Sequence record: MN655998.1
Strand: one strand, 5' to 3'
Source: Escherichia phage E26
Length of the DNA stretch: 64,000 nucleotides
Shown piece after piece: positions 3,860 through 59,555 of the stretch. How positions within the stretch are numbered: position 1 is the first letter of the stretch; each line of letters starts with the position of its first letter. The position numbers and the translations under genes are program-made. The notes beneath the pieces were generated by a model. That model saw only the letters and a list, made by a program, of their open reading frames with translations, was not told where the DNA came from and ran no database searches.

Positions 3860-4021
3860 ACTTCACCTCATACATTCATAAACACAACAACGAATAATAC
3901 AGTAACAGTTATCAACGCCATTTTCAACCCCATATTCATAATATTTTCTTCGCCTCACGATGACAGTAGCATGTCGATGCGTGCCATTATAGGCATCTAA
4001 ATCGCTCTGTCAAGCACTAAA

Positions 4022-4050
4022 AACAAAAAAGCCACCCCGAAGGATGGCTG
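4022..4050 (-). terminator. Rho-independent terminator (minus strand) after hoc
   Basis: Minus-strand RNA GCCAUCC-UUCG-GGGUGGC followed by UUUUUU. Confidence 0.6.
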
Positions 4051-4060
4051 ATAGATTTCA

Positions 4061-5275
4061 TTAAGCAGGATGCGTTTCACGAATGCATAGAACTCGCTCT
4101 AACGTATCTCGGTCCAGTTTATGTAAATCTTTGGAATGATACATGAAACCATTGCGAGATTCCATGCAAGTGCAATCACTATATTTTTCTTCCGCTGCCG
4201 CGATTGTCTCCAGATCTTTGGCGTACTTGCTGGTAGAATAAACTTCTCGGTCACGCCACTCTAACCCAGCCTCATTGAATTTAACAATCTCGTCAAATAC
4301 CCACCATCCAATGTAGATAAATGAAGTTTTGCGCCACGGGATCGGGTGTACGTAACGAAACATTTTAACAACTTCCATTGAACATTTTCTACTTGTACTT
4401 GTTGCAACTTCTACTGTTTCATTTTCGATCTGTTGATATAGTTTAGCAACACACCAGAATTTGGCTGTGTCATCGTAAGTAGCACTCTCTTTGAACAGAT
4501 GACCGTCTGGAGTGATAGAAAATCCTTCCTGTGCTTCGCCGACCTCATTACCGATCAGAGTCGGTGACAGTTGCCCTTCGCGCTGCAAATACCAGTTATG
4601 TTTGATCGTCAATTCAGGCATACCGCTAGAATCGCCTACAATGTCCTCTGACACAACATAATTAAGTAAGATCTCATTACCTAGTGCCACGGTCTTTGAT
4701 TCCACCACATCCTGTTCTACGTTCATTGTTGCCAGCATGATTTTAGTCGATGCGCTATTGGCTGAATCTTCCGACTCACCCCACACTTTTACAGTATACA
4801 CGCCGTTTTTATCTGCTGTAAATTTTTGGATTGTAATATCCTGTTTTGTGTCTATAACTTCTTCGCCCTTACTCCAACTATAATGTAGTTCATAGTTGTC
4901 TGATGGAGTCTTCCCACCAGAAAAATTTACTGTTGCATGTAATTCTACGTCTGTTTGTGATGATACGTAGAAATGCTGCGGTTCGGTGATATTTACGATT
5001 AATTCCGCTTCTTCCATGAGGAAAACTTCAGATTCTACTGATGTCGTCGTATCGGTATCTTGTACCGTTACTTTATAGCTACCCGCATTTTCACTTGTTG
5101 CGCCTTCTACAGTTAGCGTAGCTGTGTTATTTTCATGCGGTTGGTCGTCTTTTGTCCATGTATATGTCAAATTGCTGGGTAATGGTTCGTCACCCTCTAC
5201 AGTCGCCGTTAAGGTGAAACCATCGCCAGCAAGAAAACATCTTTTGTCAGATTTAATTGATACTGTGAAAGCCAT
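4061..5275 (-). CDS. hoc: highly immunogenic outer capsid protein Hoc
   Basis: 404 aa; Ig-like N-terminal repeats; C-terminal capsid-binding motifs YVHPIPWR, GWWVFDEIV, ESRNGF matching T4 Hoc. Confidence 0.85.
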   Translation of the reverse strand: MAFTVSIKSDKRCFLAGDGFTLTATVEGDEPLPSNLTYTWTKDDQPHENNTATLTVEGATSENAGSYKVTVQDTDTTTSVESEVFLMEEAELIVNITEPQHFYVSSQTDVELHATVNFSGGKTPSDNYELHYSWSKGEEVIDTKQDITIQKFTADKNGVYTVKVWGESEDSANSASTKIMLATMNVEQDVVESKTVALGNEILLNYVVSEDIVGDSSGMPELTIKHNWYLQREGQLSPTLIGNEVGEAQEGFSITPDGHLFKESATYDDTAKFWCVAKLYQQIENETVEVATSTSRKCSMEVVKMFRYVHPIPWRKTSFIYIGWWVFDEIVKFNEAGLEWRDREVYSTSKYAKDLETIAAAEEKYSDCTCMESRNGFMYHSKDLHKLDRDTLERVLCIRETHPA

Positions 5276-20051: not shown

Positions 20052-20083
20052 GTTTGATTCTCCTTTCGTTTCGGTATGTGTGC

Positions 20084-20112
20084 ATTATAGGGGATCACCG
20101 ATCCCCTGTCAA
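20084..20112 (-). promoter_or_regulatory. PeSL-like early promoter cassette 2
   Basis: TTGACA-GGGGATCGGTGATCCCC-TATAAT; perfect palindromic spacer with two GATC sites. Confidence 0.6.
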
Positions 20113-20676
20113 CAACTTTTTTGAATTATTTTTTAATTGCTCATCTTGTAATAGAGCAATAACATGCTGGCGATGTTCTTCCGATTGAGGCACACCGAAA
20201 AAGTTTGTTTTGTAGAAATATTCTAATCGATCTTCTCGTGTGCTCTCTTCCATCATGATCGCGGGTAGTCCGAGATTTCGGAAACGTCGCTTTTCTGCTG
20301 GCGTAAAATCACTGTAATACAACATAGAATCATCATTACCAGCAATGCTAAACTCATCTTTCATAAAGGAGAATATTGCGTTTAAACGCTGTTTACCGTC
20401 CACGATTTCGATCTCATAGCGAGAGCCATCATCAATCTTAGCCATTGCGATAGCACCAACCGGAAAATCATTAATCAGGTTTTCGATAAACATACGTTTG
20501 TTTTCGGTGTCCCATACCAAAGGACGCTGATAATCTGGGTTCATGTTGATATAGCCATCTTCTAACCACGCCTCATAAACAGAGATGACAAAGTTTTTAG
20601 TATTGGTATAGTAACGGCGTTTAGGCGTTAAACGGTTCATGTTATAGTCTCCTGAATGGATCATCACGTAAATCAA
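20095..20676 (-). CDS. DUF262 (ParB-like / GmrSD N-terminal domain) protein
   Basis: 193 aa; signature motifs PDYQRPLVW and VDGKQRLNAI. Confidence 0.7.
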   Translation of the reverse strand: MIYVMIHSGDYNMNRLTPKRRYYTNTKNFVISVYEAWLEDGYINMNPDYQRPLVWDTENKRMFIENLINDFPVGAIAMAKIDDGSRYEIEIVDGKQRLNAIFSFMKDEFSIAGNDDSMLYYSDFTPAEKRRFRNLGLPAIMMEESTREDRLEYFYKTNFFGVPQSEEHRQHVIALLQDEQLKNNSKKLLTGDR

Positions 20677-23371: not shown

Positions 23372-23659
23372 TTAAAACAGTCCTTCCTGTACACCGTAAT
23401 AGAGTTCGTCGCTGATAATTTCATTAATGCGACGGTGTGCATATTCCTGATTTGCGAAGTTGTCAGCAAGTTCTACTTTAGTTTCTCCGTCATGAGTCCA
23501 TTTAGTGATAACTTTACCATCTGCAAATTTGAAGTTGAACTCTTTAGCTACCGCATCGCGTACCAGACGTGCAAACTTATTGTTGCGGATTGCATTGTCG
23601 GTTTCGTGTGCAGCGTGAGCGAATTTGTTAACTTTCAGAGTGATAGTAATGTATGCCAT
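23372..23659 (-). CDS. small hypothetical protein (AKEFN motif)
   Basis: 95 aa; shares AKEFN-containing segment with ORF 26672..26983. Confidence 0.55.
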   Translation of the reverse strand: MAYITITLKVNKFAHAAHETDNAIRNNKFARLVRDAVAKEFNFKFADGKVITKWTHDGETKVELADNFANQEYAHRRINEIISDELYYGVQEGLF

Positions 23660-23705
23660 AATTTGATTCTCCTAGTTAGAAAGTGTATCTCGTTTCGATG
23701 GGTGT

Positions 23706-23734
23706 ATTATGCTATACACCCGACCTTATGTCAA
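23706..23734 (-). promoter_or_regulatory. PeSL-like early promoter cassette 7
   Basis: TTGACA-N17-CATAAT; palindrome GGGTGTAT..ATACACCC across -10. Confidence 0.55.
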
Positions 23735-23740
23735 CACTTT

Positions 23741-24019
23741 TTATAAAATAATTTTTTGATATTTTTCTATGATGTTCGTGTAAGTCACATCAACCGCTAG
23801 CACCGTTGCTTCGAATCCACCGTTTAGCCAATGGCTATGGTCATGATCGTGAAAGAAACCAAGACCAGTACGAAGACCTTCTTTATATTCTGCGCGTACA
23901 TTTAGATCATCATCGATAAACAGATAAAACCATGAATTTTTACTAGGATTGATGATACAACCTTTCAGATTAGGGAGAATATCACGACTAAGAATAAACT
24001 TATCACCTACTTTGAACAT
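23741..24019 (-). CDS. HxHW-AVDV family protein, copy B
   Basis: 92 aa from internal Met MFKVGDKF (SD GAGGA); motifs WFYLFIDDDL, HDHDHSHW, LAVDV. Confidence 0.55.
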   Translation of the reverse strand: MFKVGDKFILSRDILPNLKGCIINPSKNSWFYLFIDDDLNVRAEYKEGLRTGLGFFHDHDHSHWLNGGFEATVLAVDVTYTNIIEKYQKIIL

Positions 24020-26671: not shown

Positions 26672-26983
26672 TTAAAGTTTTTCCATGATAACGGTCATAA
26701 TTACATCTTCTGCGCGAGCGGTCAGATTATCAGCGTCAGCATGTGGGCGGTTGGTTGTTACAGAGATAACACCGTTGCGCACTGGTTTGATATTGATATC
26801 AAGATGATCCGCGAAACGTTCGCCAGTTACAGAATGAATTTTGGTGTTAAATTCTTTTGCCAGTGCCTTGCGAACTTCACGAATCAGGATAGCGTTTTTC
26901 AGTTGGTTCTCCGCGCTCATGGTCTTCTGGGTGTTCATGGTTCCGTCGAAGTCAATCATTGGCAGCGTTACGATGTATTTCAT
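26672..26983 (-). CDS. small hypothetical protein (AKEFN motif)
   Basis: 103 aa; paralogous segment with 23372..23659. Confidence 0.55.
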   Translation of the reverse strand: MKYIVTLPMIDFDGTMNTQKTMSAENQLKNAILIREVRKALAKEFNTKIHSVTGERFADHLDINIKPVRNGVISVTTNRPHADADNLTARAEDVIMTVIMEKL

Positions 26984-27028
26984 TTTTGATTCTCCGTTTA
27001 AGAAAGTGTGTTTCGTTTTGATGTGTGT

Positions 27029-27057
27029 AGTATAGGGGATCGGTGATCCCCTGTCAA
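27029..27057 (-). promoter_or_regulatory. PeSL-like early promoter cassette 11
   Basis: TTGACA-GGGGATCACCGATCCCC-TATACT. Confidence 0.55.
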
Positions 27058-27070
27058 CAACTTTTTTGAA

Positions 27071-42871: not shown

Positions 42872-43205
42872 CCCACATCACCTTTTTCTTGTTGATTGCT
42901 TTCTTACGCAGTTTTGCTACTGTCTCGTCAATATCGATAAAGACAACGCCACGGTCGAATACAGTTGCAGGTCTTGAGATATCGCTATTTTCTTGCACAG
43001 GAAGCCATGATGCGCTCGCTTCATCATAGAGATATTGTAAACCGTAATAATCTACGGCTACTGCGTAGTTTTCACTGGTAGCTGACCATAATTGAATAAT
43101 ACCGACTTTCATTATTGTTCCCGTCCGCAATGTAAGCACCGGACTACCAGCAAACATCAAAGATTCACCACAATGTTTGCACTCATAATCTGTCAGAATT
43201 TTCAT
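42843..43205 (-). CDS. hypothetical protein
   Basis: ORF track 120 aa; N-terminal CKHCG. Confidence 0.5.
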   Translation of the reverse strand: MKILTDYECKHCGESLMFAGSPVLTLRTGTIMKVGIIQLWSATSENYAVAVDYYGLQYLYDEASASWLPVQENSDISRPATVFDRGVVFIDIDETVAKLRKKAINKKKVMWDERIFETIA

Positions 43206-44635: not shown

Positions 44636-45610
44636 TTACATCCCTAACAGAGCGTCAAGATCATCCAGATCAGAAGCGGAGGAAGTACCGCCACCCAGGT
44701 CCAGAGATGCCATCAGGTCATCAGCGGAAGAATCTAACGCCGTGCTAGCTGCGTTAATACCAACTACAGTGCTAGCTGCGGTCATACCAGAATCGAATGC
44801 ATTCATCTGTGCGTCAAAATCGTCAAGCTGGCTGTTAATCGCTGCCGCAGCACTGGAAGCCGCAGCACCAGCTACCATAGAAACGCCCATAGTTTTCTTA
44901 AATTTGGTTTCCAGTTCATCGAACGGTTTAAACTGGCTAGGCGCTACAATCTCACTCAGATCAACCATGTTTTCCATCAGATATTTCTGATATGCTTCGT
45001 CTTCAATTTTCGGAAGCTGTGATTGCTGCATGAAACGAGAATCATCATAGTTCTGGTGTTTATCAACCTTCTTAGCTTTCAGGAGGAAGTTAGCACCGGA
45101 GAACACACAAGTTACATCTACCGGAACTTCGCCCATATCGGTATTCACGTTCACCATCGCAACGATCTTATCATAAATTTTCTGACCGAAGCGGAATTTG
45201 AATACCTTACCTTCGTTTTCTGGTGCTTGAGGATCTTTCAGTACCAGAATATTTGCGTAGTAAGACGCTTTACGTTTAATCAGTTGCCATTCGGTTTTAT
45301 CGGTATTGTACAGATCTTTTTCGTTAATATATTTGCACACCGGGCAAGAATCAAAATCACCGTGGGTGCTGGAGCAGTTTTCCCAATACCATTTTCCATT
45401 AACTTTGAAGGAATGGTTTACCAGTTTCACAATCGGCAGACCGTCTTCTGTCTTAGACGGCAGGAAGCGAATCAGGGCTTCACCGTTACCCGCTGCATCA
45501 GTCTTAATCTTCCACTCTTTCGGATCTTCTTTGGAGAAACCGTTGCCACCTTTCAGTGCGGCCAGTTGAGCTTGCAGTTTGGAGCTATCTTGACGTTTAA
45601 ACATATTCAC
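44636..45610 (-). CDS. 32: single-stranded DNA-binding protein gp32
   Basis: 324 aa; [20 protein letters not shown] zinc site, [12 protein letters not shown]; colinear with T4 gp32. Confidence 0.92.
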
Positions 45611-45657
45611 TATTCCTTCTTTTGATTAATTTACTAGACTATTATACAGATTTAAAT

Positions 45658-46251
45658 TTACTTGTCAAATACTTTATTAATTATATCTAACAACTTTGGT
45701 TTTCTATTTTCAAATTCTAACATTTCTTCGGGAGAAATGTCAACTACTTCTGTTTTATGAAAGAAATCAGGATCTATTGCATCGGCAACAAAGTTTCTAG
45801 CTAACGCAGCGGCCTTTTCGTAATCATAAAGACCTAGATACAAAAGTTTCCCTCTATCAACCTGAATACATGCTTTATATTTACCATCTCGTTTATAAAA
45901 ACTTACTCCGATATACTCAGACGTCTTACCTTTTTGCTTTCCAACATTTCTTGAGTTTTGTTGGTCGGTCGCATCTCTCAAGTTTTCAATCCGATTATCG
46001 GTTATAACTCTGTTTACATGGTCAACACATTTTGGCATATATCCATGATGCATGAAGAAAATTATTCTATGCTCTTTGTGCAATCGACCATCAAACTTAA
46101 CTACTCTATATCCAGTTCTTGGATTTACATAGCCCGCTCTAGATCCGACTTTATGCTTTCGGTTTGTCGATATCTTGCGAATCAGCTTACCGTTATCATA
46201 TTTAAAGAGTTCATGACAACGAGCATACAATTCAGGGTCATATGTTTTCAC
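45658..46251 (-). CDS. HNH endonuclease with AP2-like DNA-binding domain (freestanding)
   Basis: 197 aa; HVNRVITDNRIENLRDATDQQNSRN (HNH_3) plus SEYIGVSFYKRDGKYKACIQ (AP2-like). Confidence 0.7.
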   Translation of the reverse strand: MKTYDPELYARCHELFKYDNGKLIRKISTNRKHKVGSRAGYVNPRTGYRVVKFDGRLHKEHRIIFFMHHGYMPKCVDHVNRVITDNRIENLRDATDQQNSRNVGKQKGKTSEYIGVSFYKRDGKYKACIQVDRGKLLYLGLYDYEKAAALARNFVADAIDPDFFHKTEVVDISPEEMLEFENRKPKLLDIINKVFDK

Positions 46252-46915
46252 CTTTTAACCTCGATATTTCTTTACACTCTTTAACTACTTTAACAAATAA
46301 TGCTCTTGCTTTTGCGGCGTCAATAACAAGTAGTTTCTTGTACGCCTTCATTTTAACACTATAAGTTTGCCAAATCAAGTCTTTGGCTACCTTGTCGTGT
46401 TCGTCGATTATATTTAGAAAGCTATCTAACAACATAAACGACTCAAACGATATAATCCGATTTTGCAGTAGTTTAAAGATACCGCTTGTTTCGGTTGCGG
46501 GATTGTATGTAATTAGCTCTTTAAGAGTAACCCCGCGTTTCTCGGAGAAGTATACCAGACTTTTAATGTCATCGTCAAATCGTGTTGCTGCATCGGTTAT
46601 CTTTCCTATGTATTCCATATAAAAGCCGTATGCGTCAACATCAGTGATTTCACCTACCCATGCATCGGTATTGGCTACCAGATTGCTTAGGAATAGGAAG
46701 TATAATTCTCTTAGATTGTACTTTTCCGCTAATTTTGCGAAATAATACTTATCTCTGCGTTTATTGAATGCGGCATCAGACAACCGCATCCTCCAATTGT
46801 ATTTTACGCAATCATAACGCCCGTTCATATGAGCTTTCATCATGCAATATAACATATACACAGATTTAGCATTAATTCGCATATCTGGATCTGGAGGAAG
46901 ACGGTTTCTGATCAT
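46238..46915 (-). CDS. 59: gp59 helicase loader
   Basis: 225 aa; NGRYDCVKYNWRMRLSDAAFNKRRDKY, LVANTDAW, FKLLQNRIISFESFMLLDSFLNIID match T4 gp59. Confidence 0.9.
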   Translation of the reverse strand: MIRNRLPPDPDMRINAKSVYMLYCMMKAHMNGRYDCVKYNWRMRLSDAAFNKRRDKYYFAKLAEKYNLRELYFLFLSNLVANTDAWVGEITDVDAYGFYMEYIGKITDAATRFDDDIKSLVYFSEKRGVTLKELITYNPATETSGIFKLLQNRIISFESFMLLDSFLNIIDEHDKVAKDLIWQTYSVKMKAYKKLLVIDAAKARALFVKVVKECKEISRLKGENI

Positions 46916-49232: not shown

Positions 49233-49240
49233 TATAAATA
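49233..49240 (+). promoter_or_regulatory. T4-type late promoter TATAAATA for gene 34
   Basis: Exact TATAAATA 29 nt upstream of the gp34 ATG. Confidence 0.55.
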
Positions 49241-49268: not shown

Positions 49269-52200
49269 ATGGCAGATTTTTCTCAACATTTCAAGGCCAC
49301 GTTTGGCTTTGACGCTGGTAATGAAAAGGTCGTCAATGTAGCATTGGCTGATAAGAATGTCAACACCGATGCGGTCAACGTTGAATTTTTCAATTACCAT
49401 AATGGTATTACTCAGTATGACACAACTCGCGGTTATGATCAATACGGAACTACAATCTATCAAAACCGTCCGTATTATGCAAAAGAAGATATCACAAAAC
49501 CGGCAGGTGATTTTGACCCGACTAAATGGCAAGCACTGCGCACGGACCCACGTTGGGATTATATTGCAGCAACTTCCGGTGATACTCCTTTAAAGTCTGG
49601 TGATTATATCGCAGCAGATGGTCAATTTGCAAACTTGACTTTCTCTATGCCAACTAAACCAGCAGAGGGAGACACTATAACAGTAAAAGATATCGGTGGC
49701 AAGTGTGGTGTTAACGAATTATCGTTCTTGAGTTCAGGACATGAGTTTTACCATAACGGTAATGTGTATAACCGAAAATGGTATTGCACTACCCCGTATG
49801 CAATGAACTATTTCATCTTTGTTCGTAATCGTTGGCATGTTTATCAGACAGGAACAGAGCCACGCGGTGTGTACGCACAGCCAGCGATTGATGCTATTCA
49901 AATGCAGAATGGTGACCAGGTATTTCGTCGTAGTTCGTTGGGTAATATTACCTTAGTGCTTCCTAAGTTTGCCAACAATGGCGACATGATCCAGACTACA
50001 GACCTTGACGGATTAACCGCAACCAACCACGTTACGGTTAAAGTTCATGAGCACGCAGAAGAACAATCAATTGGCACGTCCGGTCTAAAAGAGATTATCG
50101 GTAAGCGTAGCGGTCATGGTGTATTCATCTTTGACAAGACGGAAAACTTATGGCGTTTGTGGGATGGTGATCAGTCTGTTCGTCTTAAACCGATCATCGA
50201 TGACACTCGCTTGCAACCTAATAGCTATGTTGCTGTATTTGGTGATCGTGATGTTACTCTGACGCTGCCGACCAATGTCGAGCCGGGTGATCGTATTCAA
50301 GTTTCTATGCAGTATATGCACGGAAACCAGAATTGCCGTATTATCACCGCCACAGAGGATACAAAAATCCTTATGTCGAAAAACATGGTTCAGTTTCCGA
50401 AGCGTAGCGAGTACCCATTCAACGGGACCGACACATGGAAGGAAGTGTCTGAATTGTCGTTCAATGCGGCTAGTGATTATGTACCTTATCTGGAGTTCTC
50501 TTATTCAGAAGGTGATGATGGTAAGAAACATTGGCTGGTAGCACACTCTCATCCGATCGTCGAACGAGTAGACCCTACTCGTAAAGAGCGTGTTGGTGTA
50601 ATTGCACTGGCTACCCAAACTGAAACGAATAAAAACCATGAAGAGAATCCTAGCGACGAAGTTGCAGTAACACCAAAAATGCTGGCTAATAAAACCGCCA
50701 ACGAAACTCGACGCGGTATTGCTCGCATTGCGACTCAAGCGGAAACGCATCAAGATACTGGTTCTAACTTCCTGGATGATGTTATCGTTACGCCTAAAAA
50801 GTTAAATGACTGTGTTGCTACCGAAGCCCGTCGTGGTGTGATGGAAATTGCAACTCAACATGAAACCAATGAAGGTTTAGACGATACCCGCGCTATTACT
50901 CCTAAGAAATTAGAAGAACGTCGCGCTTCCGAAGATCTCGCTGGCATTGCTGAAATTGTTCAGGCTGGCGGTAGTGCTGCCGCTCGACGTGGCGAAGCTG
51001 GTACAGGGATCTATAACATCAACGACCATGCTAAAATTGTTACGCCACAAAACATCAACGAAGTCAAGGCGACCGAAACTTCCCGTGGTGTTGGCTATCT
51101 GGCAACTGACGCGGAAGTGCAAGGGGCTACAGAATCAACCCCGCAAGATGCTTTACTAATCACGACTCGCACGCTAACGAAACGTACTGCTACCGAATCG
51201 CGCACTGGTATCGCTGAAATTGCAACTCAGGAAGAAACAAACTTAGGTCAAAGTGATAACCATATCATCACGCCTAAAAAGCTGCATGGCAAAAAAGCCA
51301 CCGAAGGTAAAGAAGGTATTATCCGAGTTGGTACTCAAGCCGAAACCGTGGCTGGTACACTGGCTAATGTAGCAATTTCTCCGAAGAACTTCAAATATGT
51401 TGTTCAGACAGAGGATACATGGAAAGCAACAGAAGCGCGTCGTGGATTCTTGAAAGTTGCTACTCAGGAAAACTGTTTTGTTGGTGATAATCTGCAAGGT
51501 TCTACTCAAGAACTAGGAAACTACCAGCATGACGGAATTGCTGTTACCCCTAAAGGATTAAACTACGCACTTGCTAATTTCTTACCTAAGATGGCAACCG
51601 CTCAGAATAGTTTGAAATTGGGTAACGTAGAGGCCGCTAAATGGGCGCGTAGAGACATTGACCAGACCATAGAGAGCAATTACACGTTTAATAAAAAAGT
51701 TAACGTGAAGGGCGATTTAGAGTGCTTAAAATCAGGTTCCTTTGAAACTCTGTATGTGACTAAGAACTCTACTGATGATCCGAGTAATGGTCATCTGGTG
51801 TTGGGTGAGCGTGGAGTTGACGGTCACACCGGAATTACTCTGCATGGCACAACCGCATCGGAAGGCATGAAAAACTCCTGGTCTATTATCGTTGGTGGTA
51901 CTGGAACGGCGCAAGCAGTTAATAGTGGCGCTATCGCTTTCGGTCAAATCAATGATGGTGGAGTCGTCGAGCATTACGCCTTTGCTATGGAACACACTGG
52001 CGACGCGACAGCATATAGAAACTTAATGGCAGGTCGTAACCTGTATGCAAAACAAGGCGGTTTATACATTGTTGACCTGTCTAATCCGGCAATGACTCGT
52101 TCCTCAGATGGTATGCTGAATATCGGTCACGGTGGAAGTGTTAACATCAAGGCAGGTTATCAGAATCTGACTACAGAGATCGCCGGACAGAAATATCAGA

Positions 52201-52703
52201 TCGTACACACAGGAAACGCTGACGAAGTTCTTAACCGTCAGTTTGTTAAGAATGCTGGCGATACAATGGTCGGTAAGCTGACTATGGATAATGCGCCTAT
52301 TGTTTCTGTTAAGCATGAAGCTAGCGCGGCAACCGCCCCAGCAATCGGTAACATCGGTTTCTGGAATATGCGAGTTACTACCCAGAACATCAAAGAAACT
52401 TATCCAGAGAAGAAAAACGGTACTCTGATGCAATGGGGTACTGACGCGGACGGGCTTACCCAGCTTTGGTCCCCTGATGGTACTCATAAACATTATATCC
52501 GTTCCGGTACTGGTGGTCAATGGACCGCATGGGGTGAAATTTACACCAAACAGAATAAGCCTACCGCTCAGGAAATCGGGGCAGTAGTTGCAGAAGGTGG
52601 TTTAATGAACTCTATGACGGTTCGTGATTGGATCAAAGTTGGTAATGTTAAAATCATCGCCAATAATCTGACTCGTACCGTAGACTTTATCTGGGAAGAC
52701 TAA
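49269..52703 (+). CDS. 34: long tail fibre proximal subunit gp34
   Basis: 1144 aa; MADFSQHFKA N-terminus and repeated GIAEIATQ.ET.. motifs as in T4 gp34. Confidence 0.88.
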   Translation: MADFSQHFKATFGFDAGNEKVVNVALADKNVNTDAVNVEFFNYHNGITQYDTTRGYDQYGTTIYQNRPYYAKEDITKPAGDFDPTKWQALRTDPRWDYIAATSGDTPLKSGDYIAADGQFANLTFSMPTKPAEGDTITVKDIGGKCGVNELSFLSSGHEFYHNGNVYNRKWYCTTPYAMNYFIFVRNRWHVYQTGTEPRGVYAQPAIDAIQMQNGDQVFRRSSLGNITLVLPKFANNGDMIQTTDLDGLTATNHVTVKVHEHAEEQSIGTSGLKEIIGKRSGHGVFIFDKTENLWRLWDGDQSVRLKPIIDDTRLQPNSYVAVFGDRDVTLTLPTNVEPGDRIQVSMQYMHGNQNCRIITATEDTKILMSKNMVQFPKRSEYPFNGTDTWKEVSELSFNAASDYVPYLEFSYSEGDDGKKHWLVAHSHPIVERVDPTRKERVGVIALATQTETNKNHEENPSDEVAVTPKMLANKTANETRRGIARIATQAETHQDTGSNFLDDVIVTPKKLNDCVATEARRGVMEIATQHETNEGLDDTRAITPKKLEERRASEDLAGIAEIVQAGGSAAARRGEAGTGIYNINDHAKIVTPQNINEVKATETSRGVGYLATDAEVQGATESTPQDALLITTRTLTKRTATESRTGIAEIATQEETNLGQSDNHIITPKKLHGKKATEGKEGIIRVGTQAETVAGTLANVAISPKNFKYVVQTEDTWKATEARRGFLKVATQENCFVGDNLQGSTQELGNYQHDGIAVTPKGLNYALANFLPKMATAQNSLKLGNVEAAKWARRDIDQTIESNYTFNKKVNVKGDLECLKSGSFETLYVTKNSTDDPSNGHLVLGERGVDGHTGITLHGTTASEGMKNSWSIIVGGTGTAQAVNSGAIAFGQINDGGVVEHYAFAMEHTGDATAYRNLMAGRNLYAKQGGLYIVDLSNPAMTRSSDGMLNIGHGGSVNIKAGYQNLTTEIAGQKYQIVHTGNADEVLNRQFVKNAGDTMVGKLTMDNAPIVSVKHEASAATAPAIGNIGFWNMRVTTQNIKETYPEKKNGTLMQWGTDADGLTQLWSPDGTHKHYIRSGTGGQWTAWGEIYTKQNKPTAQEIGAVVAEGGLMNSMTVRDWIKVGNVKIIANNLTRTVDFIWED

Positions 52704-52736: not shown

Positions 52737-53876
52737 ATGACACAAGAGATAGAATTACGCAACACTGGAATTAGGTTTGCGCATTTCGACGAAGACTCTG
52801 CGACATTTACCAGCATTTCAGAAAATAACTCTGTGATGTATAAGCTGGAAGTGCGCGGATCTAATGCGGATTCTACCAAACCAGCAAGGATTAGATTTAA
52901 TGGAGTGGAGATCGTTGGCACTGGCTATGAAAATGGCCTAAATTTTAAAGTTCTTACTCCAACTGGACAATTACACGAAGAAAAGGTATTCTATGGTCGC
53001 GGTGCTGTTTTGGCAATGCGTGATTATCTTTCTTTGCTGAAAGGTGACTATATCATTGCGATGGCAACGCATGGAGAATTGTTTGCAGATCCGGTAAGTG
53101 ATGTTGTATTTTCTAAGCTGGGATCTGTATCATTCCCGAATCACATTTTGTTACAGCAAATGCCTCGTGTATCATATGCAGCAATTTATTCTACTAAAAT
53201 GGGTAAAATTGTGTGCGAAGGGATGCAAGCAACTCACGGGGAAGGACAAGATTCATCTATACAAATTGAGAAAGTCTATGATACTATAGATGATCTTGCT
53301 ATAACAGGAACACCACAACGATTTTTAGATTATCCGGTTGAGTATGTTAGCGAAGATGCCGAACATTTCGAGCTAATACAATGGCCTCACGATGAGATCA
53401 GCGCCCCACTTGAGGATTTTAACATAAAGGCAGGTGACAAACTATCAATATCCTTTGAATTGTTCCGTGATAGTGCCGCAGCCGCAGCCAACGTAACCGC
53501 GCGTTTCTATCACAACTACTTCACCGATGGACAATATCAAACTGGTGTTCGATACAATGCCAGCAAAAAAGATCAATGGGAAAAGTTTGAAGCAGTCTAT
53601 ACCGTACCGGAAGGTGTCGATAGTGTAGTAACTGGTTGTATCAGATATCCAACCAACTCAAATGAAGGTATTGTTAAAATTAGAAACATACTAATAACGC
53701 CGATCAGTGGAGTCGTCAAAACTACTGGTCCTACTTCATTTGGTGTTAATGGTGTTAGAACAACTCATATTCAGGATAACGGTGATTTTACTAACCCTGT
53801 AATGAGTCTTCTTAAACTGCCTAGAGATAATAAACACATCACATCCAACAACTTTAAAGAGTTCGATGTTGATTAA
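52737..53876 (+). CDS. 35: long tail fibre hinge gp35
   Basis: 379 aa; synteny between 34 and 36. Confidence 0.75.
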   Translation: MTQEIELRNTGIRFAHFDEDSATFTSISENNSVMYKLEVRGSNADSTKPARIRFNGVEIVGTGYENGLNFKVLTPTGQLHEEKVFYGRGAVLAMRDYLSLLKGDYIIAMATHGELFADPVSDVVFSKLGSVSFPNHILLQQMPRVSYAAIYSTKMGKIVCEGMQATHGEGQDSSIQIEKVYDTIDDLAITGTPQRFLDYPVEYVSEDAEHFELIQWPHDEISAPLEDFNIKAGDKLSISFELFRDSAAAAANVTARFYHNYFTDGQYQTGVRYNASKKDQWEKFEAVYTVPEGVDSVVTGCIRYPTNSNEGIVKIRNILITPISGVVKTTGPTSFGVNGVRTTHIQDNGDFTNPVMSLLKLPRDNKHITSNNFKEFDVD

Positions 53877-53887
53877 CATTTTTAACA

Positions 53888-53917
53888 AGCCGATCCATGT
53901 GGTCGGCTTTATTTTTA
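53888..53917 (+). terminator. Rho-independent terminator after gene 35
   Basis: GCCGATC-CATGT-GGTCGGC hairpin followed by TTTATTTTTAT. Confidence 0.6.
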
Positions 53918-54037: not shown

Positions 54038-54045
54038 TATAAATA
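54038..54045 (+). promoter_or_regulatory. T4-type late promoter TATAAATA for gene 36
   Basis: Exact TATAAATA 34 nt upstream of the gp36 ATG. Confidence 0.55.
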
Positions 54046-54078: not shown

Positions 54079-55569
54079 ATGGCAGATTTGAAATATGGAT
54101 CTACTGTAGGCGGATCTCCCATTTGGACGCAAGGAAACTTGACGATCCAGCCAGCGGGGGATCAGCTTTTCTACAAAGGTCATAAAATCTATACCGCTTT
54201 TGATAGACCTTCGGCTACCGATTTTGATGCTGTTAGTGCATCCGAAGGTGGCACATTTCAAAAGCAAGTTCATTTCGAGGAAGGTTTAAGCGTAGGTAGC
54301 GCATCGGCTGGAGAAACCAAAAAGAATGGTATCTTTAAAGGCCAGAGTGATGCCGCTAATTTTGACGGCGTAAGCTGGGGTTTGCATTCATGGAAGTCAA
54401 TCGGCTTTGTTAATGCCCGTGATGGCGTTATTATGGCGTATATTGACACCACAACGGGCGAATTTAAGTCTAAAGGGACTATCGAAGGGACAACCATTAA
54501 AGACACAGGTCAACGCGTCTATAGCCCTGTTAATAAACCAACGAATAATGATTTAGATTTGGTATCTCGTCGCGGTGATACTCTCACAGGAACATATAAT
54601 TTAAACACTGTCACTGTTAAACTATCGGTTGATTCGAAATTAATTGCAAGGGAACGTGATTTAATTAATTTTGATGCGACTAAGATCTATTATGGTAACG
54701 TTCTTGATACGTTGGTATTCCGAAGTAAAGATGAGCCTACCATTTTTGTTAATGGCAGAGAAGGTCGTTTTTATCACACCAACAATAAACCAACTAAAGC
54801 CGATGTTGGGCTAGGCAATGTCACCAATGATGCACAGGTTAAACGTGCTGGTGATATTATGGAAGGTAACTTGCAAGCGCCTAGAATGTTGGCGACAAAC
54901 GATCCTGCTGGTCCTAATGAATTGGTTCGTTTGAGCTACTTTGAGAGAAAATCAATGGTAGCAAATCCAACCATCATTGGAAACGTTGATTGGAACACTC
55001 TTATTAATCGCGGTATCTATCGTGTGGAAAATGCTGGGTCGGGTACTAATAAACCGTCTGATAGTTATTATAACGGCGTTTTAATGGTATATCGCCCAGA
55101 AGATGCGGTCGGTACTCGTCGAATTGTTCAGGTGTATTATCCTGAATCTATTGACCATCCGATGTGCTGGCGTTCGTGTTCTAATGAATCATGGACTGCA
55201 TGGAACTATGTAGATCACCGTAAATTGGCTGATATTCGCTATGTTAACGTCACCGGCGATACCATGACAGGACCGTTAACTGTTCCGGCTGCAAACGGTG
55301 TTAGAACGGCTAGAGGTGCATATAATGGTGATAACTACTATGCCGGGTTAAATAGTGCTGATGGTACTGCTATGATTCACCGCATTAGTGATATTAAAGG
55401 GACCGAAAAGCTGGGGATCACCCACGACTCAAAGGTCGTGTTTTTCCGTTCTAGAAACAATACTCAAACCCTGGACCGCTATCAGCTTTATCATGAAGGT
55501 AATAAACCTACTCCGGCTGATGTTGGAGCGGTTCCACTTAATGCGGTGATTGATTTTGGTACTTTCTAA
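54079..55569 (+). CDS. 36: long tail fibre distal subunit gp36 (enlarged)
   Basis: 496 aa; N-terminus MADLKYGSTVGGSPIWTQGNL...PAGD matches T4 gp36, which is about 221 aa. Confidence 0.8.
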   Translation: MADLKYGSTVGGSPIWTQGNLTIQPAGDQLFYKGHKIYTAFDRPSATDFDAVSASEGGTFQKQVHFEEGLSVGSASAGETKKNGIFKGQSDAANFDGVSWGLHSWKSIGFVNARDGVIMAYIDTTTGEFKSKGTIEGTTIKDTGQRVYSPVNKPTNNDLDLVSRRGDTLTGTYNLNTVTVKLSVDSKLIARERDLINFDATKIYYGNVLDTLVFRSKDEPTIFVNGREGRFYHTNNKPTKADVGLGNVTNDAQVKRAGDIMEGNLQAPRMLATNDPAGPNELVRLSYFERKSMVANPTIIGNVDWNTLINRGIYRVENAGSGTNKPSDSYYNGVLMVYRPEDAVGTRRIVQVYYPESIDHPMCWRSCSNESWTAWNYVDHRKLADIRYVNVTGDTMTGPLTVPAANGVRTARGAYNGDNYYAGLNSADGTAMIHRISDIKGTEKLGITHDSKVVFFRSRNNTQTLDRYQLYHEGNKPTPADVGAVPLNAVIDFGTF

Positions 55570-55575
55570 TTTTAG

Positions 55576-55599
55576 CGGGGAGACAATCCCCGCTTTTCT
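55576..55599 (+). terminator. Rho-independent terminator after gene 36
   Basis: GCGGGGA-GACAA-TCCCCGC hairpin followed by TTTTCT. Confidence 0.5.
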
Positions 55600-55639
55600 A
55601 AATAATGTTATTCTAATAACCGTTTAAGGATTTTATAAA

Positions 55640-58585
55640 ATGGCAGATTTAAGCAGAATCCAATTTAAACGCACTAGCACTAAAGGTCGTCGACCGGATG
55701 CTAGTACGATGAATCCGGGGGAATTGGCAATCAACCTTGCGGATCAATATCTTCTTACTAAAAATGATTCCGGTGCTATTATCAATTTAAGTTGTCCTCC
55801 GGTTTATGACCGTGACGTTACAATGGCGGGTAAAGTTAAAGGTAATAATTATATCTTAAGTAAAACCGCTAACTATCTGGAAGATCAGACAGCGCGAGAT
55901 CTTAACTACTTTGGCGCTTTCCGTACCAATGGTCTTGATGGTTTTCTAGAACTAACGCTAAACGTTCCTCATCCTACTGGTGTTCAGCATGGTCGAGGAT
56001 TTACTTTCCAGTATGGACACACTGGATCGCGTGTAGAAACTTATGGCTATAATAAAGAAGGTCAAAAAGCATTTAGCTATAAAATGTATCATGAAGGTGA
56101 TAAACCAACTCCAGGAGAATTGAACGTTTATAGCAAACAAGAAGTAGATAGAATGTTTGTTAAGAACGTTAAACTTGCTACATCTCCTAGTGATATCGTT
56201 GAAGGCTATTTTAAATTAGCAACTGCAATGATTCCACAAAACGGTCTTAGCGTATTTTTCCGTATTCATGGTGGTAACGGATATAACGTTACTGCATACG
56301 ATCAAGTTGATATTGTAGAAATTGTTATTCGCAGTGGAAATGGTCGCCCTAAAGGTGTTAACGTTATTGCATATCGCCGAAATACAAACAAATCATTTGA
56401 TGTTTTGGCTGTTAATACTTCTGGTGATAACTATGATATCTATGTGAAATATCAGCGTTACACTGATAACGTTATTGTTGAATTTGGTAAAAGTGTTGGT
56501 GTTAATCTGGTAGTTCATGACGTTCCAGACTTTGTTGTTGATCGTCCTGTTGGTGATAATGTTATTGGCGGTCGCGCGGTAACTCTTTTTAACACCGAAA
56601 ACAAACGAGGTGTGTTGAGTTTTGACGATAACACACAAAATAGTTATGATATTGTTCACTTGAGTAATGATAAAGGTACTGGAAGGAAATATATTCGTAA
56701 ATTCCGTAGTAACTATAATGAAATGATCTGGCATGAGACTGTTCAAGGTTCTACTTATCGACTCGCCACGGGTAGTACAGATGCTCAGGAGATTCTATCC
56801 GTTGAATCTAGTAGCTCTATTGCTGGGACTCATAAAGGTAATATTCTTTCTGGTCGAATGATGTTAGGTGGCGGTAGTAATGTTATTACCTTGCGGCGTC
56901 CTGCTGGTCAATCCAACCATATTGCGTTTCAAGATAATCGGACTGGAGCTATTACCCGTCAAGGGTGGATCGGTTATGGTAATGCTGATACTAACGTTTT
57001 TGAATGGTATAGTGATGTAGGTGGTAGTTCTATTCGTCACCACATCGACGGACAGATCGAACTTGCAACCGGTAACACAAAACGCGTTTATACTAACGCT
57101 CAATTCATCTCAATGAATAGCGACGCCTACCGCATGCTCTACGGTAATTATGGTGCATTCTGGCGTAATGACGGCGTTAAAGTTTATCTTCTTTCTACTG
57201 CCGAAAATGATACAATGGGCGGATGGAATGCCTATCGTCCATTCATTTATGATTTAACTTCCGGTAACGTTCAATTAGGCGGTGATGGTAACGAAGAAGC
57301 ATTAACGTTAGAACGTGCTTCTCGTGCCGCTCGCTTTAGTAATGACGTTTACATTAAGAAAGGGCTTTTGACTTTCGACGCTGGTCGCTCTGGATCTCGC
57401 GATTATATTCGATTTAATCATTGGGGTGATAGTAATAATGCCCGTGATAACGTTTTGTACATAGAAGATAGTCAAGGCCGACATTTTAGCACAGAACGTG
57501 CGATGGGTACTGGTGCTCTTAAAGCATACTTCTTAGGCGATCTTGAAGTCGGTGGTAAGTTTACTTGGGGTAAAAATACAGCTACATCTAGCTTTAATAT
57601 TCGTGCATGGGGTAATGATTCCCGTAAACAAGTATTAGAATGCGCGGATGAAAGTGGTTGGCATTGGTATACCCAACGTCCAGGCGGTCCGGGAACAAAT
57701 GAGATTATATTCAATGTTAACGGGAAAGTTCAATCTCAGGGTTTTGAGACTTCTGGTAATATTAAGATAACTGGACCAGACATTGAGTTTCGTCGCACTG
57801 GCAATAAGCACATCTGGTTTAGAGATCCTGACGGCTTAGAATTGGGTTTGATTTATTGTGACGACAACGGCGTTATTCGTTTCCGTGGTCAAAAACAAAC
57901 TCAAGATTGGATATTTGGCAATAAGACGATCCAATTAGGAACTAGTGCTACTGTTAGTGGATCTGGTAACGGTTTGATTCGCGGACAAGTTCAAGGTGGT
58001 GCTTGGACACAATGGAGAGATCGTGCTGCTGGCTTATTGGTTGATTGTCAGAATACCGAAAACTCTGCACATAACGTGTGGAAAGCGACACATTGGGGCA
58101 AATTCCACATTGCAGCTATGGGTATTCACGTTTCAGGTGGAAATATAGCAAACGCATTGGCGCGTCTACATGTTAATGATGCAACTTTTGACCATAGTGC
58201 GAGCGGTGACTTCCAGGCAAGCCGTAATGGTAGCTTTAACGATGTTTATATTCGTTCTGATGCTCGCCTTAAAATCAATAAGGAAGAGTATAAAGAGAAT
58301 GCCACAGATAAAGTTAATCGCTTGACGGTATACACCTATGACAAGGTTAAATCTTTAACCGACCGTACTGTCATTGCTCATGAAGTTGGTATTATTGCAC
58401 AGGATCTTGAAAAAGAATTGCCGGAAGCAGTAACAACTTCTAAGGTCGGCGATCCTGATAAGCCAGAAGAGATCTTAACAATTTCTAACTCTGCTGTCAA
58501 CGCTCTTTTAATTAAGGCGTTTCAGGAAATGAGCGAAGAATTGAAAGCCGTTAAAGCTGAACTAGCGGAACTTAAAAAGAATTAA
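55640..58585 (+). CDS. 37: long tail fibre distal subunit gp37 with C-terminal intramolecular-chaperone-like domain
   Basis: 981 aa; N-terminus MADLSRIQFKRTS...PGELAINL as T4 gp37; C-terminus SDARLKINKEEY...IAHEVGIIAQDLEKELPEAV resembles peptidase S74 chaperone domains. Confidence 0.85.
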   Translation: MADLSRIQFKRTSTKGRRPDASTMNPGELAINLADQYLLTKNDSGAIINLSCPPVYDRDVTMAGKVKGNNYILSKTANYLEDQTARDLNYFGAFRTNGLDGFLELTLNVPHPTGVQHGRGFTFQYGHTGSRVETYGYNKEGQKAFSYKMYHEGDKPTPGELNVYSKQEVDRMFVKNVKLATSPSDIVEGYFKLATAMIPQNGLSVFFRIHGGNGYNVTAYDQVDIVEIVIRSGNGRPKGVNVIAYRRNTNKSFDVLAVNTSGDNYDIYVKYQRYTDNVIVEFGKSVGVNLVVHDVPDFVVDRPVGDNVIGGRAVTLFNTENKRGVLSFDDNTQNSYDIVHLSNDKGTGRKYIRKFRSNYNEMIWHETVQGSTYRLATGSTDAQEILSVESSSSIAGTHKGNILSGRMMLGGGSNVITLRRPAGQSNHIAFQDNRTGAITRQGWIGYGNADTNVFEWYSDVGGSSIRHHIDGQIELATGNTKRVYTNAQFISMNSDAYRMLYGNYGAFWRNDGVKVYLLSTAENDTMGGWNAYRPFIYDLTSGNVQLGGDGNEEALTLERASRAARFSNDVYIKKGLLTFDAGRSGSRDYIRFNHWGDSNNARDNVLYIEDSQGRHFSTERAMGTGALKAYFLGDLEVGGKFTWGKNTATSSFNIRAWGNDSRKQVLECADESGWHWYTQRPGGPGTNEIIFNVNGKVQSQGFETSGNIKITGPDIEFRRTGNKHIWFRDPDGLELGLIYCDDNGVIRFRGQKQTQDWIFGNKTIQLGTSATVSGSGNGLIRGQVQGGAWTQWRDRAAGLLVDCQNTENSAHNVWKATHWGKFHIAAMGIHVSGGNIANALARLHVNDATFDHSASGDFQASRNGSFNDVYIRSDARLKINKEEYKENATDKVNRLTVYTYDKVKSLTDRTVIAHEVGIIAQDLEKELPEAVTTSKVGDPDKPEEILTISNSAVNALLIKAFQEMSEELKAVKAELAELKKN

Positions 58586-58625
58586 GGAAACTCCCAGGGA
58601 AGGGAACTACTAAGGAGAAACGGCT

Positions 58626-58865
58626 ATGGTCTATAATATCGTCATTGGTGCTTTGTCTAATTTCGGAATGAAATTATTGTCAAAGTTAATTAGTGAAAAG
58701 ATGCTCACTAAAATTTTCTTCTATTGCGCTCGTCGTCTTGCGGCTTATACCAATACGCCAATTGATGACCGTTTCGTGGAAGAACTTTATAAGGAGTTTA
58801 ATAAAGATCAGTCAGAAGATAGTAACGAGCAAGATAAACCTAGTGATAGTCAACTACCTAAATAA
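58626..58865 (+). CDS. small membrane protein
   Basis: 79 aa; N-terminal hydrophobic helix, acidic C-terminus; occupies the gene 38 position without resembling gp38. Confidence 0.4.
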   Translation: MVYNIVIGALSNFGMKLLSKLISEKMLTKIFFYCARRLAAYTNTPIDDRFVEELYKEFNKDQSEDSNEQDKPSDSQLPK

Positions 58866-58898: not shown

Positions 58899-59555
58899 AT
58901 GCAAGTTTCTGAAAAAGGGAAAGACTTTGCTATCTCAAATGTCCTGCGCGCTATTTTCACAACTAAAAGCACGGAGTTGCTCGTACTTCGTGTTTTTGCT
59001 GCCGTCGTGTTGTCCATATTGGCATTTGTCGTTTATAGTAAAAACGAGTTATTTGCGCTTTATAAAGAGACTCGTTATGAGACTTATGCTCACATTCTCC
59101 AGGTAGAGAAAGACCGCAATTTTGATAATGCAGCACAGGAGCAGTTACAGATAGTTCATGTGTCGGCTGATGCCGATTTTTCTGCTGTTTTTAGTTTTCG
59201 TCCGAAAAACCTAAACTATTTTGTTGATTTGGTGGCATATGAAGGAAAGCTACCGCACACAATCGATGAAAAAAATTTAGGCGGATTCCCTATCAATAAA
59301 ACGAGTGAAGAATATCGTAGGCATCTTTTAGGTAAATCATATTTTACCGATAAAGATTTCCAGTATATTCCATCAAGAGAAAAGAAATTAGAGAATATCG
59401 ATATAGGTTTCATGTATTCTTGTCCTATATTCAATCTCGATAATGTCTATTCTGGTAGTATCGCCATTTCATGGAAGAATAAACCGGATATTGACATTGA
59501 GAATTTAGATACTCTTTGCAATCAATCTGCCAGAATCCTCGGAAGGATTAGATAA
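58899..59555 (+). CDS. t: holin T
   Basis: 218 aa; QLQIVHVSADADFSAVFSFRPKNLNYFVDLVAYEGKLP, MYSCPIFNLDN, ARILGR match T4 holin. Confidence 0.9.
   Translation: MQVSEKGKDFAISNVLRAIFTTKSTELLVLRVFAAVVLSILAFVVYSKNELFALYKETRYETYAHILQVEKDRNFDNAAQEQLQIVHVSADADFSAVFSFRPKNLNYFVDLVAYEGKLPHTIDEKNLGGFPINKTSEEYRRHLLGKSYFTDKDFQYIPSREKKLENIDIGFMYSCPIFNLDNVYSGSIAISWKNKPDIDIENLDTLCNQSARILGRIR

Follow-up and report, generated by a model that had tools for sequence, protein, structure and literature searches.

Organization of the tail fiber locus

[quoted passage not shown] The genes and their accompanying signals are located as follows:

49233..49240, + strand: T4-type late promoter box TATAAATA, 36 nt upstream of g34
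49269..52703, + strand: g34, proximal long tail fiber subunit, 1144 aa (phrog_972, 1396 bits)
52737..53876, + strand: g35, hinge ('knee') protein, 379 aa (phrog_1154, E 2e-126)
53887..53909, + strand: terminator-like hairpin after g35, with a 9 bp stem, 5 GC pairs and a T-run
54038..54045, + strand: T4-type late promoter box TATAAATA, 41 nt upstream of g36
54079..55569, + strand: g36, connector of the distal half-fiber, 496 aa (phrog_16472 end to end, 1183 bits)
55640..58585, + strand: g37, distal long tail fiber subunit, precursor of 981 aa, predicted mature form of 872 aa (phrog_1699, E 2.6e-192)
58626..58865, + strand: ORF79 (= 'Dc5' of RB49), 79 aa, unknown function, in the slot of the T-even g38 (phrog_402)
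58899..59555, + strand: t, T-type holin, 218 aa (Pfam Phage_holin_T, 206.7 bits)

Judging from its similarity to known genomes, the region is the ordinary distal tail fiber block of an RB49-like Krischvirus coliphage (RB49/Phi1/ECD7 group). Its nucleotide identity to Krischvirus genomes ranges from 93.9% (ECD7) to 97.2% (011D4), and no record of the phage collection exceeds 97% identity over the region as a whole.

The promoter box at 54038..54045 is the probable start of a late unit comprising g36, g37, ORF79 and t. Between g36 and t, the terminator scan returned no intergenic terminator, and the + strand matches in that interval fall within coding sequence. The TATAAATA motif occurs 7 times in the window versus 5.6 times expected, which is not above chance, and its placement before g34 is suggestive.

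The enlarged gp36

With 496 aa, gp36 is more than double the canonical size of ~216-221 aa, as the sequence-only reading had already noted. The RB33 protein has 216 aa, and a length of ~220 aa is given for the canonical gp36 (Trojet 2011). [quoted passage not shown] The Pfam profile Phage_T4_gp36 (PF03903) scores 21.4 bits, under its cut-off of 26, and phrog_1425 ('hinge connector… distal connector') is matched with an E of 5e-53. From the RB33 alignments, the phrog_1425 match and the position between g35 and g37, the protein is taken to be a genuine, though enlarged, gp36. It appears to be built from a canonical gp36 into which modules have been inserted, among them a pyocin-type knob. By sequence comparison, the large gp36 is typical of the genus and constant across it.

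The putative knob is found at:

54976..55233, + strand: putative pyocin-type knob domain of gp36, about aa 300-385 (weak profile match and low-confidence model)

The profile of this segment matches residues 136-209 of the R1 pyocin fiber (6CL5) with an E of 0.0074 and an F2 pyocin side fiber with an E of 0.1. In Foldseek, the gp36 model was paired with 6CL5 at a probability of 0.97 but with a TM below 0.2, and the AF2 monomer has a mean pLDDT of 49.6; the knob stretch, at 65-77, is the best part of this poor model. Most Foldseek matches of gp36 were regarded as meaningless, and the 6CL5 lead was the one kept and rechecked by profile search. The assignment is supported by the NCBI names for homologous segments, which read 'pyocin knob domain-containing'. 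An NCBIfam scan of gp35, gp36, gp37 and ORF79 gave no matches. It is conceivable, though improbable, that the knob is an accessory glycan-binding site and helps to explain the use of several O-antigens by RB49-like phages. In the literature searched, no account was found of the role that a knob-bearing gp36 of double size plays in the fiber.

A sequence motif is shared between gp36 and its neighbors. Three copies of the short form [ND]KPT are present in gp36, and gp37 and gp34 have one each. The motif is fiber-specific, since the 79 ORFs of the window that encode 100 aa or more contain just one further occurrence. The sequence-only reading had described a longer motif repeated in both gp36 and gp37. 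The sharing holds for [ND]KPT, but the exact HEG[ND]KPT is not repeated and occurs as a single copy in each of the two proteins.

Architecture of gp37

Four segments can be distinguished in the distal part of gp37:

57044..57250, + strand: Gp34_trimer-type trimerization domain, aa 469-537 (Pfam PF21446, 87.9 bits)
57440..58189, + strand: variable distal shaft, aa 601-850 (compared in 50-aa blocks, 58-76% identity to Phi1)
58241..58255, + strand: DVYIR strand, aa 868-872, predicted mature C-terminus and docking surface for the N-terminal domain of gp38
58256..58582, + strand: intramolecular chaperone (IMC) / Peptidase_S74 domain, aa 873-981, with predicted scissile Ser873 and Lys878

The trimerization domain matches the crystal structures of T4 gp34 (4UXE and 5NXF). 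Compared with Phi1, the blocks before the shaft are mostly 90-100% identical (one is 78%), and those after the shaft again reach 90-100%. The S74 domain is thus maintained beside a diverging shaft, which points to purifying selection.

An S74-type C-terminus had been proposed from the sequence alone. The HMM check bears this out: residues 873-932 match Pfam PF13884 with an E of 1.5e-11, and the score of 44.9 bits is twice the cut-off of 22. The assignment of the last 110 aa to a C-terminal chaperone domain also stands, except that the part predicted to be released comprises 109 aa. At the boundary between the fiber and the C-terminal domain, the junction reads NDVYIR^SDARLK, where Ser873 is followed by Lys878 five residues on. 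The same n+5 spacing of serine and lysine is known from T5 pb1 (Ser1264/Lys1269). In an alignment of 24 homologues, D874, R876 and K878 are invariant, S873 is conserved in at least 90%, and DVYIR is nearly invariant. The DVYIR of this phage is identical to that of the site DVYIR^SDGRLKI in T2-like phages, whose counterpart in S16, by alignment, is the cleavage site DLNVS^SDRRIKK (PMC7917993). Auto-cleavage of gp37 would accordingly be placed between R872 and S873.

The structural predictions are in line with this assignment. The last 100 residues of gp37 were modeled by AF2 with a pLDDT of about 80-90, with the terminal helix at residues 290-320 of the modeled fragment. Foldseek matched the C-terminus to the ICA domain of MyRF (7DC3; probability 1.00, TM 0.72 on the target), to 3GUD (probability 1.00) and to 3GW6. 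In the model, the C-terminus has the IMC fold, i.e. a mixed alpha/beta part followed by a long C-terminal helix of the trimeric coiled-coil type. The pre-cleavage tip has a pLDDT of 34-46 in the AF2 monomer (fragment residues 112-166), and the claim on the docking tip is limited to the sequence, namely to the DVYIR strand. The IMC module is shared by 937 phage records, among which many Tequatroviruses reach 67-77% identity.

The location of g38

As had been noticed before, no recognizable gp38 is present at the locus, nor anywhere in the 64-kb window: a scan for glycine-rich ORFs found none, and tblastn with RB49 gp38 as query returned noise alone. The absence of the gene from the locus does not imply its absence from the genome, because relatives encode g38 elsewhere. 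In RB49, g38 occupies positions 45,367-46,143 and g37 lies near 150 kb, so that the two genes are about 105 kb apart. RB49 gp38 matches the Pfam families GP38 (PF05268, 242 bits) and Gp38_N (PF21721, 65 bits), and is on these profiles a genuine adhesin of the T2/T6 type. A DNA similarity search traced the RB49-type g38 to 83 records, among them ECD7, Phi1, 011D4, Sf20, Makalu_001-003, JSE and GEC-3S. All 34 cross-checked relatives that hold at least 80% of the region possess it. From these relatives, we infer that g38 is present in the genome of this phage, outside the window. An exact look-up of gp37 matched no record, and an exact 48-mer taken from the variable part of g37 had no counterpart in viral_contigs.

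The type of gp37 is informative as well. Residues 479-975 are 49.9% identical to residues 532-1013 of gp37 from the Tequatrovirus RB33 (over 503 aa, E 3e-147), where the locus is arranged as g36-g37-g38-t. The best sequence match of the gp37 C-terminus to a solved structure is the gp37-gp38 complex of S16 (6F45). In the T2/T6/S16 arrangement, IMC cleavage exposes the docking surface for gp38 (PMC7917993; Trojet 2011). The IMC of gp37 is no alternative to gp38, because the fibers of T2, T6 and S16 combine both. The sequence-only reading had proposed that the fiber folds independently of gp38 and ends in a different receptor-binding tip. This proposal finds no support, as the relatives carry an unlinked g38 and the S74-bearing gp37 is the usual partner of gp38. 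The receptor-binding tip is most likely an ordinary gp38 adhesin. The shaft at aa 601-850, being the most divergent part of gp37 among close relatives, leaves room for a contribution to host range.

ORF79/Dc5

The small ORF between g37 and t, named Dc5 in PMC6832132, is strongly conserved. It is 97.5-100% identical in RB49, TB34 and OZ035808 and 96-100% conserved among Krischviruses. Homologues of about 45% identity are present in Ounavirinae, between the last fiber gene and a gene that is called holin in one record. ORF79 homologues bear the Pfam tag PF26925. The fibers that precede them are T4-type, with gp37_C and without S74. An association of ORF79 with S74 or with the T holin was ruled out; the Ounavirinae homologues follow T4-type fibers and precede a different gene.

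ORF79 has no GP38 or Gp38_N match in Pfam and no glycine-rich or hypervariable segments, and phrog_402 is a family of unknown function; the earlier judgment that it is not gp38-like is upheld. Its description as a membrane-helix protein could not be maintained. Its highest Kyte-Doolittle average over 19 residues is 1.31, short of the customary threshold of about 1.6, and the segment contains lysines. From its composition, this segment is amphipathic and does not make a convincing membrane protein. A Dc5-family ORF is conserved at the fiber/lysis junction in two myovirus lineages, and no account of its role was found in the literature searched.

Proposed mechanism

Taken together, the late block 34-35-36-37-Dc5-t of this RB49-like Krischvirus would work as a fiber of the T2/T6/S16 type, to which we assign a probability of about 0.9. 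Three gp37 chains would trimerize with the aid of their own C-terminal IMC (aa 873-981). Once the triple beta-helix has formed, Ser873, activated by Lys878, would cut the R872-S873 bond, and the chaperone of 109 aa would leave. The bared DVYIR tip would subsequently be capped by one gp38 adhesin monomer, a docking suggested by the T2/T6/S16 fibers. This gp38, encoded outside the window, would set the receptor; RB49-like phages recognize OmpA or certain O-antigens. ORF79/Dc5 would merely fill the slot left by g38. For the prediction of host range, the receptor determinant would be the unlinked gp38, possibly together with the variable gp37 aa 601-850.

Alternative readings

In the model that had been put forward from the sequence alone, the fiber dispenses with gp38, and the bare gp37 tip itself binds the receptor after IMC cleavage, in the style of T5 pb1 or the K1F endosialidase. 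IMC fibers with their own receptor-binding tip do exist (e.g., T5 pb1), the window is without a gp38 gene, and aa 601-850 of gp37 is hypervariable among close relatives, as for a receptor-contacting region. However, a GP38 adhesin is encoded elsewhere in every relative examined, the host-range mutations of RB49 map to gp38, the distal half of gp37 has its homologue in a T-even phage with g38 directly behind g37, and the DVYIR docking strand is conserved. This model is considered highly improbable. An even more remote reading is that the S74 match represents a decayed remnant, with gp37 left unprocessed and its C-terminal domain kept on the virion. The score at double the Pfam cut-off, the confident predicted fold that matches solved IMC/ICA domains, and the invariance or near-invariance of Ser873, Asp874, Arg876 and Lys878 across homologues all speak against decay.

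Two further readings concern Dc5. It may be asked whether Dc5 is a new fiber-tip chaperone or adhesin that stands in for gp38, given that it occupies the exact position of the T-even g38, is apparently co-transcribed late with g36, g37 and t, and has Ounavirinae homologues directly after the last tail fiber gene. That adhesins or chaperones may be encoded by small ORFs behind g37 in other phages has been considered possible (Trojet 2011). Yet the protein has only 79 aa and resembles neither kind of gp38, and it is almost unchanged where the gp37 tip and gp38 vary, the opposite of adhesin behavior. In Ounavirinae, moreover, it stands behind fibers without S74, so that it tracks neither the IMC nor gp38. 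The next gene is the holin gene t here and a 'holin' in one Ounavirinae record, so that a role in lysis is no less likely. A replacement of gp38 by Dc5 is very unlikely on these grounds. Somewhat less far-fetched, but still improbable, is a combined proposal: Dc5 would be a small accessory factor of distal fiber maturation (in chaperone release or in capping by the unlinked gp38) and not a lysis protein or a passenger, and, separately, the gp36 knob would serve as an accessory glycan-binding site. The T2/T6/S16-type fiber with an unlinked gp38 remains the preferred reading.

Comparison with known fiber systems

Among Krischviruses (RB49, Phi1, JSE, ECD7), the differences of this sequence are merely allelic. 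The gp37 C-terminal IMC is present and g38 is far from the locus in these phages as well. In this phage as in Phi1, gp36 has 496 aa; the identities to Phi1 amount to 98.2% for gp36, 99.5% for gp35, 100% for t and 98.7% for ORF79. The differences lie in gp37 aa 601-850, with just 58-76% identity, and in gp34, which is 85.6% identical and carries a 102-aa deletion after residue 673. The RB49 long tail fiber locus, with g38 away from g37, was reportedly described by Desplats in 2002. The RB49-type arrangement has since been published (Trojet 2011; Efimov/Golomidova 2022). The state of the distal fiber is already known from work published since 2002-2011, and the term 'remodelled', applied to it by the sequence-only reading, fits this genus-wide state and nothing that is peculiar to this sequence.

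The T4 locus has its genes in the same order, 34-35-36-37-x-t, and gp36 and gp37 agree with their T4 counterparts at the N-terminus. In contrast, T4 gp37 has no IMC, and its own needle binds the receptor with gp38 as a non-structural chaperone, whereas a separate gp38 adhesin is expected here. The T4-type gp37_C (PF12604) is absent from the present gp37, as no match was obtained in a Pfam scan at E up to 0.1. T5 pb1 and the K1F endosialidase resemble gp37 in their C-terminal IMC, in the scissile Ser with a Lys five residues later, and in the fold. They differ in that their own mature tip binds or degrades the receptor, where a separate adhesin is expected for this phage.

The closest likeness in mechanism is to T2, T6 and S16 (6F45). 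The distal half of gp37 is homologous, the cleavage motif and the DVYIR strand are those of T2-like phages, and the relatives encode a gp38 of the same Pfam family (GP38/Gp38_N). The differences concern the layout and gp36: ORF79/Dc5 directly follows g37 and g38 is about 105 kb off (in RB49 coordinates), and gp36 has 496 aa with a putative knob instead of about 216 aa. A gene that is missing from its usual neighborhood should not be taken as missing from the genome as a whole. Where a gp37 of the T-even type bears an S74 chaperone, this is a sign of a fiber capped by gp38, not of one that does without it.

The fibre gene block and its relatives

The fibre locus of phage E26 is one more allele of the RB49/Phi1/JSE fibre locus, which is its closest known system. 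Six genes are arranged on the plus strand; ORF79, the 79-aa ORF between gene 37 and t, is known as 'Dc5' in RB49.

49269-52703, +, g34: 1144 aa; PHROG name proximal fibre subunit
52737-53876, +, g35: 379 aa; PHROG name proximal connector
54079-55569, +, g36: 496 aa; PHROG name tail fibre / distal connector
55640-58585, +, g37: 981 aa; PHROG name distal subunit
58626-58865, +, ORF79: 79 aa; phrog_402, PHROG category unknown
58899-59555, +, t: 218 aa; Pfam Phage_holin_T (206.7 bits); PHROG name holin

The ORFs agree exactly with the sequence-only reading. A TATAAATA box is found 36 nt upstream of g34 and another one 41 nt upstream of g36, and a strong hairpin terminator lies directly 3' of g35. 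This suggests two units, g34-g35 and a late g36-g37-ORF79-t, in T4 fashion, a scheme that we infer rather than assert because the count of TATAAATA over the whole window is not above chance.

The 5.6-kb region is present over its full length in the Escherichia phages ECD7 (93.9% identity) and Phi1 (92.8%), and across 94% in vB_EcoM_011D4 (97.2%). At least 80% of it occurs in 34 records. The records holding the region come from Krischvirus, the 'pseudo-T-even' RB49 group. The annotation of Phi1 gives the same order: 34, 35, 36 (also 496 aa), 37, a hypothetical ORF and t. The protein identities to Phi1 amount to 99.5% for gp35, 98.2% for gp36, 87.2% for gp37, 98.7% for ORF79 and 100% for t. Hence both the 'enlarged gp36' and the small ORF are fixed across the genus.

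The departures from the published relatives are allelic only, namely in gp37 aa 601-850 and in a deletion in gp34. Relative to Phi1, no part of the fibre block diverges more than the gp37 stretch (57440-58189; 58-76% identity in 50-aa blocks), whereas the C-terminal intramolecular chaperone (IMC; 90-100%) and most other parts are conserved. The gp34 of the window counts 1144 aa versus 1246 aa in Phi1, owing to one clean 102-aa deletion after aa 673 (about nt 51288). It is situated among G-[IV]-x-x-[IVL]-A-T-Q-x-E repeats; tail-collar-fibre profiles (phrog_910) match these repeats too.

The C-terminal chaperone of gp37

The proposed likeness of the gp37 C-terminus to peptidase S74-type fibres was borne out by the profile match, the conserved catalytic residues and the predicted IMC fold. 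In the HMM search, Pfam Peptidase_S74 ('Chaperone of endosialidase') matched residues 873-932 at 44.9 bits (cut-off 22). The junction reads NDVYIR-S873-D-A-R-L-K878; among 24 aligned homologues, D874, R876 and K878 never vary and at least 90% have S873. In the T5 L-shaped fibre, Lys1269 activates the scissile Ser1264, and S1264A abolishes cleavage (PMC4690869). Ser873 and Lys878 of gp37 show the same n+5 spacing. When the last 321 residues were modelled with AlphaFold2, the final ~100 were predicted confidently (pLDDT about 80-90) and include a long terminal helix. Foldseek matched the model to the intramolecular-chaperone auto-processing domain of MyRF (7DC3, probability 1.00, TM 0.72 on target) and also to two IMC crystal structures from phages, 3GUD and 3GW6. 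The predicted cleavage, if it occurs, would free 109 residues.

gp38: relocated, not lost, in the relatives

From these features the sequence-only reading had derived a gp38-independent fibre with a different receptor-binding tip. Its description of the locus and its domain call are correct, but the biological conclusion conflicts with what is already known: with a relocated g38, with gp37 with an IMC being the usual partner of the gp38 adhesin, and with gp38 experiments within the genus. What stands is that g38 does not follow g37, as no copy was found in the 64-kb window. However, RB49 and its relatives encode it far off, an arrangement already described for RB49 (Trojet et al.). In the RB49 record, gene 38 is located at 45,367-46,143 on the opposite strand, with g37 near 150 kb, and its product matches Pfam GP38 (242 bits) and Gp38_N (65 bits). 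On the RB49 map the window corresponds to about 96-160 kb, so the missing g38 is expected. RB49 g38 DNA was recovered in 83 phage records, e.g. ECD7, Phi1, 011D4, Sf20, the Makalu phages, JSE and GEC-3S. The gene has thus moved and is not lost. That this isolate itself lacks g38 would be very improbable, because every relative examined has it.

The gp37 itself points to the same partner. Over residues 479-975 it shares 49.9% identity (E 3e-147) with the gp37 of Tequatrovirus RB33, where the order is g36 (216 aa), g37, g38 adhesin and t. A total of 937 phage records contain the IMC module, many of them Tequatroviruses with 67-77% identity. In phage S16, loss of the last 113 residues uncovers the Gp38 docking surface; its site DLNVS^SDRRIKK was aligned to DVYIR^SDGRLKI of T2-like phages, in which DVYIR is the proposed triangular tip taking the gp38 tryptophans (PMC7917993). 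The window gp37 carries an exact DVYIR^SDARLKI, and the S16 gp37-gp38 complex (6F45) is the top solved-structure sequence match of its C-terminus. In the genus, RB49 host-range mutants carried gp38 E230K, with or without Y231S, as sole changes (Efimov et al., PMC9569957), and receptor use is set by Krischvirus gp38 variants (Lutz et al. 2025, PMC12032242).

Some further observations concern gp38. The similarity in gp37 aa 601-850 is seemingly independent of the relatives' gp38 type: ECD7 and Sf20 are about equally close to the window there, yet belong to different gp38 groups. In the RB33 record (KM607001; 4887-5327 of locus L005), the annotated g38 counts just 146 aa, and 390 nt without annotation separate it from t, which suggests a frameshift or truncated annotation. 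The database protein P0031 (303 aa, from an E. coli assembly) fuses a gp38 adhesin's N-terminal half (Gp38_N and part of GP38) to a gp37 C-terminal tip with S74; recombination, a frameshift in the gene call or chimeric assembly may account for it. Lastly, three stretches of 60-100 bp (20064-20122, 23654-23756 and 26980-27067) share 84-93% identity with RB49 intergenic sequence near g38 (42,957-43,041 and 46,414-46,509). They may be repeated 'PeSL' promoter/terminator motifs, as reported in T4-like phages (PMC4122927).

The enlarged gp36

The gp36 of the window looks like a canonical gp36 into which modules were inserted: it shares 50% identity with RB33 gp36 over residues 1-70 of both, residues 251-294 align to 167-210 of the latter, and the C-terminal ends are similar by eye (…VIDFGTF and …VQDFGYY). 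One insert stands out most clearly, at about aa 300-385, and carries the signature D-x-N-T-L…G-[IV]-Y…N-x-P…G-x-L-x-V-Y…Q-x-Y…W-x-x-W. Its profile matches one knob domain in the R1 pyocin fibre (6CL5 residues 136-209, E 0.0074); the match to an F2 pyocin side fibre is weaker. Homologous segments are named 'pyocin knob domain' by NCBI, and Foldseek matched the gp36 model to 6CL5 (probability 0.97), the model being poor overall (mean pLDDT 49.6). A pyocin-type knob is thus probable, not proven. The [ND]KPT motifs noticed earlier are real and fibre-specific: of six occurrences among the larger ORFs of the window, five fall in gp34, gp36 and gp37.

Two metagenomic proteins of about 826 aa (P0079 and P0081) align over 97% of gp36 (26-27% identity) and go on with Gp34_trimer and Peptidase_S74 domains. 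In other phages, gp36-like and gp37-like parts therefore form a single chain.

ORF79 at the fibre/lysis junction

ORF79 is present in published comparisons of pseudo-T-even fibre loci. As had been stated, it has no Pfam or PHROG likeness to gp38. Its description as a membrane-helix protein is not convincing: the top 19-residue Kyte-Doolittle mean is 1.31, and lysines lie within the segment. The homologues bear the Pfam tag PF26925 and share the core F..KL…E…K.FF..AR.LA..T.TPIDD.FV..L, while the acidic tail is Krischvirus-specific. In Ounavirinae (Felix O1-like phages), homologues of about 45% identity occupy the same slot (3992-4189 in locus L003, 3992-4186 in L004), directly after the last tail-fibre gene and before a ~123-aa gene called 'holin' in phage mistaenkt and 'hypothetical protein' in wV8. 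The neighbours there belong to other families than in the window: the fibres are T4-type (gp37_trimer/gp37_C) without S74, and the ~123-aa gene product is not a T holin. What ORF79 tracks is therefore the fibre/lysis junction and neither the IMC nor gp38. Its role would more likely be lysis-associated or neutral than one in the fibre.

Comparison with known systems

The gene order of the fibre block is shared with the RB49/Phi1/JSE locus. Mechanistically, the window fibre belongs with its kin, the T2/T6/S16 fibres, from which it differs by the unlinked g38 and the double-sized gp36 with its probable knob. It also differs from T4, where gp37 lacks an IMC and forms its own needle and gp38 is a chaperone, and from T5 pb1 and K1F, where the mature tip binds the receptor.
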